DNA from: an uncultured Acidobacteriota bacterium
GTDB taxonomy: Bacteria; Acidobacteriota; Thermoanaerobaculia; Multivoradales; UBA5704
Assembly (NCBI GenBank): GCA_963756455.1
Contig: CAVWNC010000004.1
Location: forward strand, 503,098 to 567,097
Reading direction: 5' to 3'
Length of the DNA: 64,000 bases
The notes under the pieces were generated by a model. That model made no database searches. It was not told the origin of the DNA and saw nothing but the letters and a program-made list of their open reading frames with translations. Positions 50,988 to 58,369 of this stretch are shown here, piece after piece. The translations under genes were made by a program, and so were the position numbers. Each line of letters begins with the position of its first letter. Position 1 is the stretch's first letter.

Positions 50988-51299
50988 TTAGCCCTGGGAG
51001 TCGGAGCCGGTGGAGACCTCCGGTTCATCGTCAGTCGCCGTCTTTGACTTGCCCTCGCTGTCGACCGTCCCCAAGGCGTAGACGCAGATCTCCTCGAAAG
51101 AGACCCGGTTCTCCTCAGCAATGTCCATCAGCTTCTGGAAGCTTTCCATCACCTCCGGGGGCATGGTGCCGCTGCGCATCTCCCGCAGCCAGGCGGCCTG
51201 GAACTTGAGCGGGTGGCGCCCCGAAAGGGGTTTGCCGACATAGATGTGGAACGGGGCCTTGGTGCCATTGAAGTCACAGGGAATCGTGAATCGCTTCAT
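50988..51299 (-). CDS. small conserved hypothetical protein (103 aa) translationally coupled to the STAND gene
   Basis: MKRFTIPCDFNGTKAPFHIYVGKPLSGRHPLKFQAAWLREMRSGTMPPEVMESFQKLMDIAEENRVSFEEICVYAL. I recall this N-terminal pattern from a DUF-type small-protein family (possibly DUF2610), but cannot verify it. Its ATG overlaps the STAND TGA (ATGA). Confidence 0.5.
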   Translation of the reverse strand: MKRFTIPCDFNGTKAPFHIYVGKPLSGRHPLKFQAAWLREMRSGTMPPEVMESFQKLMDIAEENRVSFEEICVYALGTVDSEGKSKTATDDEPEVSTGSDSQG

Positions 51300-57200: not shown

Positions 57201-58369
57201 TGCGGCGCGGCGGCGAAGATCGCCCGGCGTCCCGCGGTGACCGCCTGGTCCACCGCGTCGCCATTGGCGATCCGGCGGTAGAACACCCGGCTGAAGGTGA
57301 TCGCGGCGCGGTCGGTCACCGGGAACTGCATCGCGACCACCGCGGGGACGCCGCTGCGCACGAGCCCCGTGGCGACGCCGGCGAAGGGGTAGGGCCCCGC
57401 GTCGGCGGCCCGGGCCGTATTGCAGGCGTTGAGGAAGACGAGCTGGAGCGGCGGCTCCGCCAGGAGGGGCGACAGCGTCTCGCCATCGACCCAGTCCTCG
57501 CCGCGGTCCGCGGTCTCGAGGGCGAGGAGCCCCTTGCCGCTGTCGGCGTCGAAGCGACCGTGGCCCATGAAGTGCAGCACGTGAAACGACCCGTCGAGCA
57601 GAGCTTCGTTGAGCGCCTCCAGAGTGGTGCGCTCGATCTCGACGGCTTCGGCTCCCTGATCCTTCCAGATCCGCTTGAGATGGGCCCGCTCCTGGTCCAG
57701 GTCGAGCGGCGGCAGCTTCAAGGGACTGGCCATCGCGAGGAGGATCCGCAGCGGGGCGGGCCGCAGTGCGGGGCGGGGTGGCCGCGGCACTTCGAGATAG
57801 CGCACGACCGGGCTCCTCGGGCTGAGGCTGAGAAAGCTCTCGCTTCCCGGGTCGTAGAGGAGCTCCCAGGGCAGAGCGGCAAGACGGATGAGCTGGGGGT
57901 GATTCGGGTTGATCATCAGCACGATGCGCAGGCCGGCGTCGCCGACCATGCCCAGGCTCTTCGCGTAGAGCTCGTGCACGCGCCTGGGAAAGAGGCTCCG
58001 GAAGAGCCGCCGACCGACCTCCACCGGAGTCTGCGATCGCGCTTCGAGCCGCCCTTCGCGGATCAGGTGCCGCAGGGCATCGCGGAGCTCCGCGGGGAGA
58101 TCTTCCTCGGCCACCGGCTCGCGCTCGGAGGCCAGCCCGAAGGCGCCTTCTTCCGAGCGGAGCAGCAACTCCTTGAGGAGGCGCGCGACGGACTGCGACG
58201 CTTCGTCCCCGAAGGGCCTCTCGAAGACATCAATGTCCTCGCCGGCCGGAGACTGGGCGTGGACGGCGAGACTGTCTGATCCATCCGGCAGGATCTGCAG
58301 GATGAAGTCCTGGTAACCCAAGGAGCGGCCCATCATCCATGCCAGGAGAGCTTCATCGTCGCACCTCAC
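51296..58369 (-). CDS. giant (2357 aa) STAND-class protein: N-terminal CHAT (caspase-like) protease domain, NACHT-type P-loop NTPase, and about 1550 aa of C-terminal helical (HEAT/ARM/TPR-like) repeats
   Basis: CHAT dyad His in SFHVLHFMGHG (aa about 270) and Cys in LVFLNACNTA (aa about 316). Walker A MVILGDPGSGKTTLARWL (aa about 548-565). Walker B/NACHT AVVLLDGLDEIDD (aa about 668-680). The long Leu/Ala-rich C-terminal region has no catalytic motifs. Start is GTG 58369 or ATG 58336. Confidence 0.75.
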   Translation of the reverse strand: MRCDDEALLAWMMGRSLGYQDFILQILPDGSDSLAVHAQSPAGEDIDVFERPFGDEASQSVARLLKELLLRSEEGAFGLASEREPVAEEDLPAELRDALRHLIREGRLEARSQTPVEVGRRLFRSLFPRRVHELYAKSLGMVGDAGLRIVLMINPNHPQLIRLAALPWELLYDPGSESFLSLSPRSPVVRYLEVPRPPRPALRPAPLRILLAMASPLKLPPLDLDQERAHLKRIWKDQGAEAVEIERTTLEALNEALLDGSFHVLHFMGHGRFDADSGKGLLALETADRGEDWVDGETLSPLLAEPPLQLVFLNACNTARAADAGPYPFAGVATGLVRSGVPAVVAMQFPVTDRAAITFSRVFYRRIANGDAVDQAVTAGRRAIFAAAPQSAEWSTPVLFLRNREGALFEKGEVATESDLLERYLRWLVEEYGELELPGLPQIGRRPAVPLDTVYVALRGDLAGSYERTQSRKALEEQARTLANLPEVEALDPEQLRRKVTYMTSLVAMAPLPASIEERDRPQLLREGGAPRSQSVTLGEAFRSYRRMVILGDPGSGKTTLARWLTLQLATAGLQMRDPVEVPLHQVDPEATEGSGWISLGPRRVPILIRVATFAQAREQEPTLTLAAFLGHHLAQYGRTATTRDGRPLDPQALHVLLLAQLEEGTAVVLLDGLDEIDDPAQRYDIAHEIDRFIDAWLPAGDDELAKGLGPAEFPGGIAQPYQVGGVQLVVTSRIVGYQMAPLSKRATHLTIEAMEPRAVDRFCDVWVRAARRAALPREAWNALAEREAEREAAGLKTAIADLRRRDAGELASNPLLVTILALVYQHGQRGFPRQRVRLYAMAVSILLEKWRLRAQGKGERLRTDEELLAILVPLAAEVHATSGIGVIDEPKLEAVLRQHLEPAEAIAFRTVLSEEVGLLAARGQGVYGFLHLTFQEYLAACHLAHDRASATVAILDRLSSPRWREPILMALGLLSSELDEPAFEALLSSMLDHPDPLGNLMPRAPLLIVAALPEMVQIPPRAVERVAERLLAAASERSALERFPRLRQQVEGAYTALLKRREGGDTAVEETAERVLCESLTAPSEGPGPTARRLAAARLARAAKSDSLRLAEALEAALPRDSAAWGWPVDDALRALKARAPEVPLGGRRALGRELLRNAELAERFLADSGWVRIGMALYGGLDSGLPERLAAKELELAMVNHEQIRWGERSGDPRAAETQERLSTERGVIEAALGELRKSGSSFRIERMHRDVPWLTEEVIGCLLARRPSTSLIPWLEDRWREPLSLQKRGEVFLALVALGAPPAVDPSGEPLSTSVLALLSRVAQTLEIAVSAAVVPALATFKAAAEEDPGDAWTELVRATLRVAQAFGSGPVNVMELAGSRAPLLAEAWQNAFAGSAEDPVYSLAVVLDTAAGQLAASPMLLAETFAVAHESANGLWEGHRGWALDRLAPLPEGPRDVLVAALDALAALDEPFDFVRGWALTVLAPLFPEHGLLPEALILALGSLSDRFATRTETIQALLEQGDPDAELLLAVDPIAQLLAEIEGITDPYLRFRGYWQLLRHFSDLRGELLATPDPAVLKGNRPQGSLWGRLRAAVTERSAVLAAAAPRAAQAITDPLLRAWACERLAALGHQPEEWMRRARQAALSIPARRHEQRARTLARLAAAFPLEESNALLALALDDVAALDEERRAAALFSLRSALPGGGSLRDRFERLVAGLRDPRWRAQAERAAAPLLELYAAPLAERDSGLSALLLGATIHDLQQRFLLPWDAAGLWQVLDTPRRQEALDALRQRSRVSGLRLTREAAVTLGRLLEGGEDSLVREILPWVQNPDASVLPIVRRWPAGGDPEVRRYRDLLLAEVEDLSELTLPALIELLSHPDDRTRYRAALALYGDFSDLHRIFNVSSLGSRTLHRLARALLDCRDQAQVAQAIGWAFERTRHNDERCLSTWVEEAAEETPEGEEARLILGDIQKITGSAWRRFVKEIAKPSPKAQRALLRSVCRLLDRDWITPERWAEIAPSVRGISRAALTQDTYLLDHPAALVEAADLAWRTHRNLPMGPMAAAARQIFAAKRQPLSRLLDADSEELRQTLKKLGGLVWAGEPYHERIRAAAQRVEQSPHLLAVLMSWLADELRHEMPDDRSWFTDPKSELLAVLAVAAEKLPISFLAEAQTLPDLAPLLRDAARFQGSYTGRQAALILLSYLRRFDAEAKVAVRSGLADVGHVQRTAIGSIGRYRDVDRAFLEELFDDLVAAPGVAAYATGRALAALARNLYRPPEERDAILSALTRAVDHPHCRRDVYLLESNDSSGKRKETIRHVGRLDQTFHELLLELNGTIDLGRQRPRPGEERQEG

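Follow-up and report, generated by a model that had tools for sequence, protein, structure and literature searches.

A gene of 2357 codons in an uncultured Acidobacteriota bacterium (Thermoanaerobaculia, Multivoradales, UBA5704) encodes a caspase-like CHAT protease, a NACHT-type STAND NTPase and a long helical C-terminal region, and its stop codon overlaps the start of a gene for a protein of 103 amino acids. What does such a small, translationally coupled partner do beside a receptor-like protein of this size, and do the two form one system? The locus lies in the window analysed here, a stretch of 64,000 nucleotides (GenBank assembly GCA_963756455.1, contig CAVWNC010000004.1, positions 503,098 to 567,097 of the forward strand), in which position 1 is the first letter. 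An initial annotation, made from the letters and a list of translated open reading frames (ORFs), had proposed a candidate conflict module. The small protein is a member of the DUF2610 family, the pairing recurs across six phyla and persists when the N-terminal effector is exchanged, and we put at slightly better than even the chance that the two genes make up a bacterial NLR-like (STAND) conflict module, with DUF2610 as a detachable subunit for sensing or regulation at the C-terminal end.

RESULTS

The STAND protein and its coupled partner

The features of the pair, all on the reverse strand, are the following.

51296-58369, reverse: STAND gene (CHAT, NACHT, α-solenoid), 2357 codons, from the ORF list, its translation and Pfam
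57209-58015, reverse: CHAT caspase-like protease domain, residues 119-387 (Pfam PF12770)
57560-57562, reverse: codon of the catalytic His270, in HFMGHG (residues 266-271)
57422-57424, reverse: codon of the catalytic Cys316, in FLNACNT (residues 312-318)
55370-56782, reverse: NACHT NTPase module, about residues 530-1000, from Pfam NACHT and motifs
56690-56716, reverse: Walker A, GDPGSGKTT, residues 552-560 (alignment A2)
56342-56362, reverse: Walker B, LLDGLDE, residues 670-676 (alignment A2)
51464-55369, reverse: C-terminal α-solenoid, about residues 1001-2302, from the AlphaFold2 (AF2) model, alphaRep matches and HEAT_2 in homologues
51359-51463, reverse: terminal β-hairpin and helix, about residues 2303-2337, from AF2 secondary structure
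51296-51313, reverse: translational-coupling junction, with the ATGA start/stop overlap at 51296-51299 and the purine-rich GAGAGGCAGGAGG directly upstream
50988-51299, reverse: DUF2610 gene, 103 aa (Pfam PF11020), with core residues 1-78 and a variable acidic tail

The large gene is the single 2357-codon reverse-strand ORF that the initial annotation had described; its reading frame opens with GTG, but translation may in fact begin at one of two ATG codons that lie 11-12 codons further on. Full-length homologues are 27-78% identical to it, and 19 full-length relatives make up alignment A2, on which the motif conservation is based. The proposed N-terminal CHAT domain is supported by its Pfam match (E 9.4e-30, 104.5 bits against a cut-off of 24), by the columns of His270 and Cys316, both of which are kept in all CHAT-bearing homologues, and by a match of the STAND family profile to a CHAT domain protein of the PDB (8tl0_A, 6e-21). 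The profile match together with a His...Cys dyad in H-G and N-x-C contexts marks the protein as a predicted CHAT (clan CD) peptidase. The proposed NACHT P-loop NTPase is likewise recovered by Pfam (PF05729, 32.6 bits against a gathering score of 26.7, the alignment being limited to the P-loop stretch 546-576, profile positions 1-31), and three homologues (L021, L064 and P0015) align to positions 1-164 of the 167 of this profile. Within Walker A, G552, G555, G557 and K558 are invariant among the 19 homologues, in which the Walker B DGLDE, fitting the NACHT signature D[GAS]hDE as defined in bioRxiv 10.1101/2022.07.19.500537, and a sensor-1 motif TSR at residues 732-734 are also conserved. By tblastn the NACHT segment is 32-58% identical to DUF2610-linked proteins from other phyla, and the family profile gives weak PDB matches to NLRC4, NAIP and NLRP3, those to NLRC4 and NLRP3 lying around profile positions 858-892. 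At the level of sequence, the protein thus carries the Walker A and Walker B motifs of NACHT STAND NTPases and the profile match and dyad of CHAT peptidases.

The remainder of the protein is dominated by an α-solenoid of about 1350 aa. The AF2 model of residues 1160-2357 (pLDDT 83.2, pTM 0.75) is almost wholly helical, with ~65 helices, and closes with a β-hairpin plus helix. The family profile matches HEAT-like alphaRep designs in the PDB, Pfam HEAT_2 matches occur in STAND homologues, and the region can be aligned along its full length with homologues, while BLASTP self-comparison revealed no internal self-similarity. The C-terminal part had been described as an array of helical repeats without enzymatic motif; it is indeed helical and non-enzymatic, and 'helical repeats' is right in the structural sense, but a simple array is not what the self-comparison indicates. 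It is a conserved, unique solenoid, which the model suggests is built of diverged HEAT-like helical pairs and which is presumed to be the sensor. The terminal hairpin and helix carry the motif R.VYLL...I.H.GRLD..Y.LL.ELSG, which homologues coupled to DUF2610 conserve and which the uncoupled clade P0008-P0011 has in a shorter or changed form; they are a candidate docking element for DUF2610.

The 103-aa ORF, previously noted as a conserved coupled partner, belongs to DUF2610 (E 2.4e-32; 111 bits, where the gathering score is 21; positions 1-78 of the 81 in the profile), which is present at most homologous loci, and the TGA of the STAND gene does overlap the ATG of its gene (ATGA), as the initial annotation had read. 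The AF2 model of this protein (pLDDT 81.6) has a β-hairpin and three helices followed by a disordered tail that is acidic, of low complexity and not conserved in alignment A1. Q34 and W37 are the only residues that are invariant across divergent members of the family, with H29 and P30 almost so. Two candidate features were rejected. The first was a zinc site formed by C8, H18, H29 and C72: these residues look invariant in close relatives, but divergent and fused members have lost C8, H18 and C72. The second was a DUF2610-like domain integrated into the C-terminal end of the STAND protein in the window, for which a hidden Markov model (HMM) from A1 found nothing and hhalign gave a probability of <1%.

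Conservation of the pairing

The linkage that the initial annotation had suspected is found from both sides. Among 11 homologues retrieved with the STAND protein, 9 carry DUF2610 either immediately downstream (P0001, P0003, P0004, P0005, P0007, P0012, P0016 and P0019) or as an in-frame fusion (P0015), mostly with the same 4-nt overlap; in P0005 it had not been called as a gene and was recovered by tblastn. For the reverse test, one genome per GTDB species was scanned for DUF2610 and the loci were then searched by tblastn with STAND segments: 16 of the 17 non-alphaproteobacterial loci adjoin a homologue of the NACHT and C-terminal region. These 16 loci span Acidobacteriota, Cyanobacteriota, Bacteroidota, Chloroflexota, Actinomycetota and Methylobacter, and thus six phyla, and occur in Thermoanaerobaculia and Bryobacterales, in Spirulina, Cyanomargarita and Rhizonema, in Lewinella, Lewinellaceae and Phaeodactylibacter, in two Chloroflexia, in Dactylosporangium, Actinacidiphila, Streptacidiphilus and Catenulispora, in Methylobacter and on one more chromosome. 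The best-labelled relatives of the pair are Thermoanaerobaculia (Acidobacteriota) metagenome-assembled genomes (MAGs).

An NTGA start/stop overlap is present in at least 12 loci, having been read in L001, L004, L018, L021, L026, L048, L167, L168 and L170 and deduced from coordinates in L171 and L172. Clustering of the ORFs of related loci leaves the STAND and DUF2610 genes as the only ones generally common, and the NACHT modules reach 52-53% identity between Acidobacteriota and Cyanobacteria. When metagenomes were scanned with the STAND alignment, most of the matches were to distant NACHT proteins, and the scan was uninformative on coupling.

Effector exchange and fusion of DUF2610

Among DUF2610-coupled relatives the N-terminal domain varies: many have CHAT, L026 has TIR, L011 a trypsin-like peptidase and L041 DUF4062, and the domain has no assignment in L012, L061 and P0004. 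A further TIR-bearing relative, P0006, is partial, with its C-terminus outside the available sequence, and has no bearing on coupling. Since the effector is swapped while DUF2610 stays, DUF2610 belongs with the NACHT and sensor part of the protein and not with the protease.

The same position is indicated by fusions. In L026 and L048 a degenerate DUF2610-like domain is fused to the STAND protein and starts exactly where the STAND protein of the window stops, and in both an intact free-standing DUF2610 gene follows the fused copy. The occurrence of both fused and separate forms at the C-terminus, combined with the translational coupling, argues that the STAND protein and DUF2610 would form a physical complex.

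The family extends beyond these loci. A profile search of 1.84 billion representatives gave 853 DUF2610 clusters at E ≤1e-3; the family, of about 850 clusters at 50% identity, has no known fold relative. Alongside small proteins it contains many fusions, one natural example being the Nostoc protein WP_179076911. These include nSTAND1-TPR-DUF2610-TPR, Ser/Thr kinase-TPR-DUF2610-TPR, TPR-DUF2610-TPR and GYF-TIR-Sel1-DUF2610, and from these occurrences in TPR and Sel1 arrays DUF2610 is seen to be habitually embedded in, or appended to, the helical-repeat sensor arrays of signalling and conflict proteins. In two surveys DUF2610 is listed as one of the domains that occur in fusion with cyanobacterial orthocaspases (PMC7475262, PMC8283722), and these are the only mentions of the family that were found in the literature. 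No match to DUF2610 as a phage protein or mimic was found in INPHARED, IMG/VR or the folds of BFVD.

One member of the family is plasmid-borne. On plasmid p057_J of Nostoc sp. C057 (L085:8518-12273) an nSTAND1 NTPase with a C-terminally fused DUF2610, annotated merely as a 'DUF2610 domain-containing protein', lies near genes for an ERF recombinase, a helix-turn-helix regulator and a type I restriction endonuclease.

Subtypes of the locus

The locus in the window is the minimal two-gene form. In six loci (L011, L042, L047, L049, L067 and L080) DUF2610 is accompanied by a gene for a TraG/VirD4-like ATPase (PF02534; e.g. L011:8606-9928), a subtype made up of actinobacterial loci, Schlesneria L049 and L080. 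In the Schlesneria MAG (L049:10001-20244) three tandem DUF2610 genes face TraG-like, HEAT-RNAP-alphaCTD-FGE-sulfatase and CHAT proteins, and NACHT is not detectable at this locus. Tandem DUF2610 paralogues number three in L061, three in L049 and two in L080. Another subtype is an apparent operon with 4-nt overlaps in the order GrpE, Hsp70, two unknown genes, STAND (CHAT-NACHT) and DUF2610 (L170:3658-12551, L171:1-11089, L172, L167 and L168). It is convergent with one or two genes for ~650-aa Peptidase_M48-like proteins and with pentapeptide-repeat genes, and its DUF2610 is fast-evolving, with 36-46% identity to the copy in the window.

Surroundings of the locus in the window

Two further features of the window are the following.

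49923-50888, reverse: 322-aa ORF, 99 nt downstream of the DUF2610 gene
5208-5291, reverse: tRNA-Leu(TAA), the only tRNA in the window, far from the locus

The 322-aa ORF has W/G-rich motifs, including LGEQLADGGW, that resemble the QxxDGGW of prenyltransferase and terpene-cyclase repeats, and the initial annotation had counted it as a possible third component. It has no sequence match in Pfam, NCBIfam, PADLOC or the PDB, and this proposal was abandoned, the gene being found beside no related STAND-DUF2610 pair and having no HMM or PDB support. The orthologue L001, which is 78% identical, is flanked by genes none of which lies near the window locus, and the neighbourhoods of homologous loci vary, with IS66, toxin-antitoxin pairs and C14 peptidase together with vWA genes among their contents.

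Upstream of the STAND gene and on the same strand, a protein of at least 1474 aa (59530-63951, reverse) runs off the window; it has an alpha/beta-hydrolase domain with TIG, Ig, PKD and 'choice-of-anchor X' domains and resembles a hydrolase of the secreted or surface type, with no relation to the module. On the other side lies a glycogen phosphorylase gene (46742-49379, reverse) that is split over two frames around 48170, with positions 4-243 and 241-712 of the PF00343 profile in separate ORFs and one extra base at the break (...gac gag aag gga c ctg ccg tgg gag...); it is either a pseudogene or an assembly error. The intergenic stretch of ~540 nt between the 322-aa gene and glgP contains a 58-nt imperfect inverted repeat (49356-49413 / 49423-49480), and palindromes at 49640-49685 and 49582-49601 / 49787-49806 lie in the same region (49356-49806).

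DISCUSSION

Proposed mechanism and alternative explanations

Our results suggest how the pair may work. The C-terminal α-solenoid, with DUF2610 bound at its end, would sense a trigger, upon which the NACHT NTPase would exchange nucleotide and oligomerise in a switch of the inflammasome or apoptosome type. The CHAT protease, activated by induced proximity, would then cleave cellular or invader proteins and arrest the infected or stressed cell. DUF2610 probably docks on the terminal β-hairpin and the HEAT-like end of the STAND protein, in a proportion that the ATGA coupling would fix, and could be a co-sensor or a bait, its own state being what is watched, or else a lid that holds the sensor off until the trigger arrives. 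A role in conflict, presumably against phages, is favoured because effectors including TIR are swapped, because the distribution over six phyla is patchy and the neighbourhoods are variable, and because bNACHT and Avs proteins provide a precedent.

Several observations weigh against this interpretation. P0002 and the P0008-P0011 group (represented by P0010) have no adjacent DUF2610, so in these two lineages the partner is either dispensable or supplied from elsewhere. The mean pairwise identity of DUF2610 is 56%, as against 30% for its STAND partner, and the two distance matrices are weakly correlated (Mantel r 0.33, p 0.005), which simple co-evolution of a binding pair would not predict; the higher conservation of DUF2610 and the weak correlation suggest that it is under constraint beyond binding of the solenoid, through a further conserved interaction. 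At the window locus itself there is no GC anomaly, no mobile-element boundaries in the form of flanking direct repeats or a nearby tRNA were detected, no known defence genes were found beside it within the window, and its neighbours are the secreted hydrolase with Ig-like domains and glycogen phosphorylase. Finally, alphaproteobacterial MAGs, among them Rickettsiales-like ones and Azospirillaceae, carry DUF2610 as a stand-alone gene in housekeeping-type synteny, and tblastn found no NACHT homologue near these loci, which have the following arrangement.

L005-L084, e.g. L005:9504-10267 and L081:5356-6052: alphaproteobacterial DUF2610 loci, with an NDUFS4-like gene (PF04800) and then DUF2610

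The NDUFS4-like gene is present at 48 alphaproteobacterial loci and in ~40 of them lies 50-300 bp upstream of DUF2610; it is often preceded by RNase R or topoisomerase I. The alphaproteobacterial copies of DUF2610 form a shallow clade (mean identity 79%, compared with 54% among STAND-linked copies), which in a crude neighbour-joining tree is nested within the STAND-linked diversity.

Could the adjacency be without meaning, DUF2610 being an unrelated small gene that hitch-hikes? The two lineages without it and its independent existence elsewhere would fit, but the start/stop overlap is conserved across six phyla, in-frame fusions occur, the association is reciprocal and the coupled loci are not one recently transferred element, their STAND proteins being 24-45% identical; we regard this explanation as very improbable. 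Another explanation takes DUF2610 as the target of the protease, a CHAT substrate from which a toxic or signalling fragment is released, like Csx30 (Craspase) or bacterial gasdermin. DUF2610 does directly adjoin the protease gene, is listed among orthocaspase-fused domains in the two surveys, accompanies CHAT or trypsin-like proteases in several members of the family and has a disordered tail after its compact core. This tail is not conserved, however, and the coupling is kept where the N-terminal domain is TIR, DUF4062 or unassigned; DUF2610 is also fused to protease-free kinases, nSTAND1 and TIR-Sel1 proteins, and its fusions place it at the sensor end, away from the effector. A substrate role consequently appears quite unlikely to us.

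The conservation of DUF2610, which far exceeds that of its receptor, leads to the proposal of a guard or integrated decoy, in which DUF2610 copies a conserved cellular protein that is targeted by invaders and the STAND protein watches whether it is intact or modified, be it in trans or as a fused decoy. The stand-alone genes of Rickettsiales-like and Azospirillaceae genomes, the degenerate fused copies beside an intact free one (L026, L048), the tandem paralogues and the position at the sensor end would all agree with this. Outside the alphaproteobacteria, however, no housekeeping copy was seen, DUF2610 occurring there essentially only with these systems, so that a guard would have no object there unless the copy in the operon has a function of its own; the alphaproteobacterial copies are nested inside the STAND-linked diversity and not the reverse, and no phage-encoded relative or interactor is known from INPHARED, IMG/VR or BFVD. 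We therefore hold a guard or decoy to be unlikely. Much the same low probability is given to a non-immune regulatory or developmental switch, in which an NTPase and a protease would act in HetF-like proteolysis, stress or programmed cell death and DUF2610 would report the state of the cell. Here the best NCBIfam match of CHAT is to the cell-division protein HetF, albeit far under the cut-off, the fusions to Ser/Thr kinases and TPR scaffolds are typical of signal transduction, one subtype is in an operon with GrpE and Hsp70, the window locus has no defence island around it and the alphaproteobacterial context is of the housekeeping type. Effector swapping that includes TIR, a patchy distribution over six phyla with up to 52-53% identity of NACHT across them, and neighbourhoods that vary and contain IS66, toxin-antitoxin pairs or C14 peptidase together with vWA genes are instead typical of conflict systems, and make such a switch doubtful. 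The reading of the locus as a conflict module with DUF2610 as its C-terminal subunit is thus the one we carry forward.

Relation to known systems

The initial annotation could not match the locus to a characterised system, and the PADLOC and NCBIfam system models bear this out, none giving a full match. PADLOC finds no system model on the window proteins, with partial domain matches to SAVED_CHAT (E 2.7e-14), to BovA and to the P-loops of IetA, PDC-S73 and mad8, and on the relatives it gives no match except a marginal one to the Avs1b protease domain in one of them. No NCBIfam model covers the full length of the protein, HetF scoring 70 bits against a cut-off of 1200 and EruA 40 bits against 1000.

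The receptor resembles bNACHT proteins (Kibby et al., bioRxiv 10.1101/2022.07.19.500537) in its central NACHT with D[GAS]hDE, in effector swapping within clades, in an N-terminal conflict-type effector (the bNACHT repertoire includes peptidases and TIR) and in a C-terminal superstructure-forming repeat sensor, for which HEAT is listed. It differs from them in having a conserved, translationally coupled small partner gene and, at 2357 aa, in its unusually large size. Neither DUF2610 nor CHAT is among the entries in the accessible part of the supplementary architecture tables of that study (bioRxiv 10.1101/2022.07.19.500537). The NCC-H domain described there was considered as an equivalent of DUF2610 and set aside, the identity being unconfirmed: NCC-H is internal, has 58 aa, belongs to clade 13 and is followed by NCAB1, and DUF2610 is absent from the names in those tables. 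Avs proteins and bNACHT25 likewise combine a STAND NTPase with an effector at the N-terminus and a large helical sensor, and have in common with the window system the idea of a small conserved non-phage protein in the sensing complex; sensing by bNACHT25 uses a DnaJ cofactor (PMC12169576) and that by Avs7 uses EF-Tu (bioRxiv 10.64898/2026.01.04.697583). Whereas those cofactors are borrowed from the host proteome, that of the window system would be encoded by the system itself.

With SAVED-CHAT (type III CRISPR/CBASS, PDB 8tl0) and TPR-CHAT/Csx29 (type III-E) the window protein shares a homologous CHAT and the conserved His/Cys dyad. SAVED-CHAT is activated by binding of a cyclic oligonucleotide to SAVED, and Csx29 by a CRISPR RNA-guided complex; the window has neither a SAVED domain nor cas genes, and activation would instead come via oligomerisation of NACHT. 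The ternary and multicellular-bacteria conflict systems (Kaur et al., PMC7159879; PMC8195603) likewise combine STAND NTPases, caspase or TIR effectors and HEAT or TPR scaffolds, favour cyanobacteria, actinobacteria, Chloroflexi and Bacteroidota of complex habit, and have small adaptor domains that their components share. In contrast to these systems, no vWA-MoxR, EAD, Death-like or TRADD-N domains were detected in ours, and DUF2610 sits at the sensor end while EADs sit at the effector end. The texts of PMC7159879 and PMC8195603 do not mention DUF2610.

The short amyloid motif that amyloid-signalling NLR/Bell (BASS) pairs have both at the N-terminus of the NLR and in the tail of the small partner was not encountered on reading the sequences, the N-terminus of the STAND protein being the enzymatic CHAT and the tail of DUF2610 acidic and of low complexity. 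Plant NLR-ID (integrated decoy) receptors have a small domain attached at or after the C-terminal NLR sensor, either fused or as a paired gene. By analogy, not homology, DUF2610 would be such a small non-canonical domain at or after the C-terminal sensor, in fused or paired form. No description of the STAND-DUF2610 pairing was found in the accessible literature, although, given the extensive catalogues of STAND clades (bioRxiv 10.64898/2026.01.04.697583), the present one may already have an anonymous entry. The type of receptor is familiar; what is new is the conserved, dedicated small subunit and the wider association of DUF2610 with sensor scaffolds.

Implications

Bacterial NLR-like proteins have mostly been studied as single-gene sensors that bind phage proteins directly, and host cofactors such as DnaJ and EF-Tu have been found recently. 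DUF2610 is apparently an undescribed subunit of bacterial NLR-type conflict systems: a dedicated small subunit conserved across six phyla, retained through at least four effector swaps and also fused into STAND, kinase and TIR scaffolds. A broader and improbable proposal is that DUF2610 is an ancient, near-universally constrained 'reporter' that has been captured repeatedly, as a paired or integrated bait, by at least two STAND clades, by Ser/Thr kinases and by TIR proteins, and that is a cellular protein in Rickettsiales-like alphaproteobacteria, where its gene adjoins that of the homologue of NDUFS4 of complex I. If this were true, the locus would be a bacterial counterpart of the integrated-decoy and guard receptors of plants, firing when an invader modifies, sequesters or degrades DUF2610. 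The alphaproteobacterial copies, which in reduced Rickettsiales-like genomes lie beside an NDUFS4 homologue, may reflect either a cellular role that immune receptors exploit or a domestication from conflict systems. The pairing provides the first functional context for DUF2610, and the locus offers a compact two-gene system in which to ask how an accessory subunit gates an NLR.

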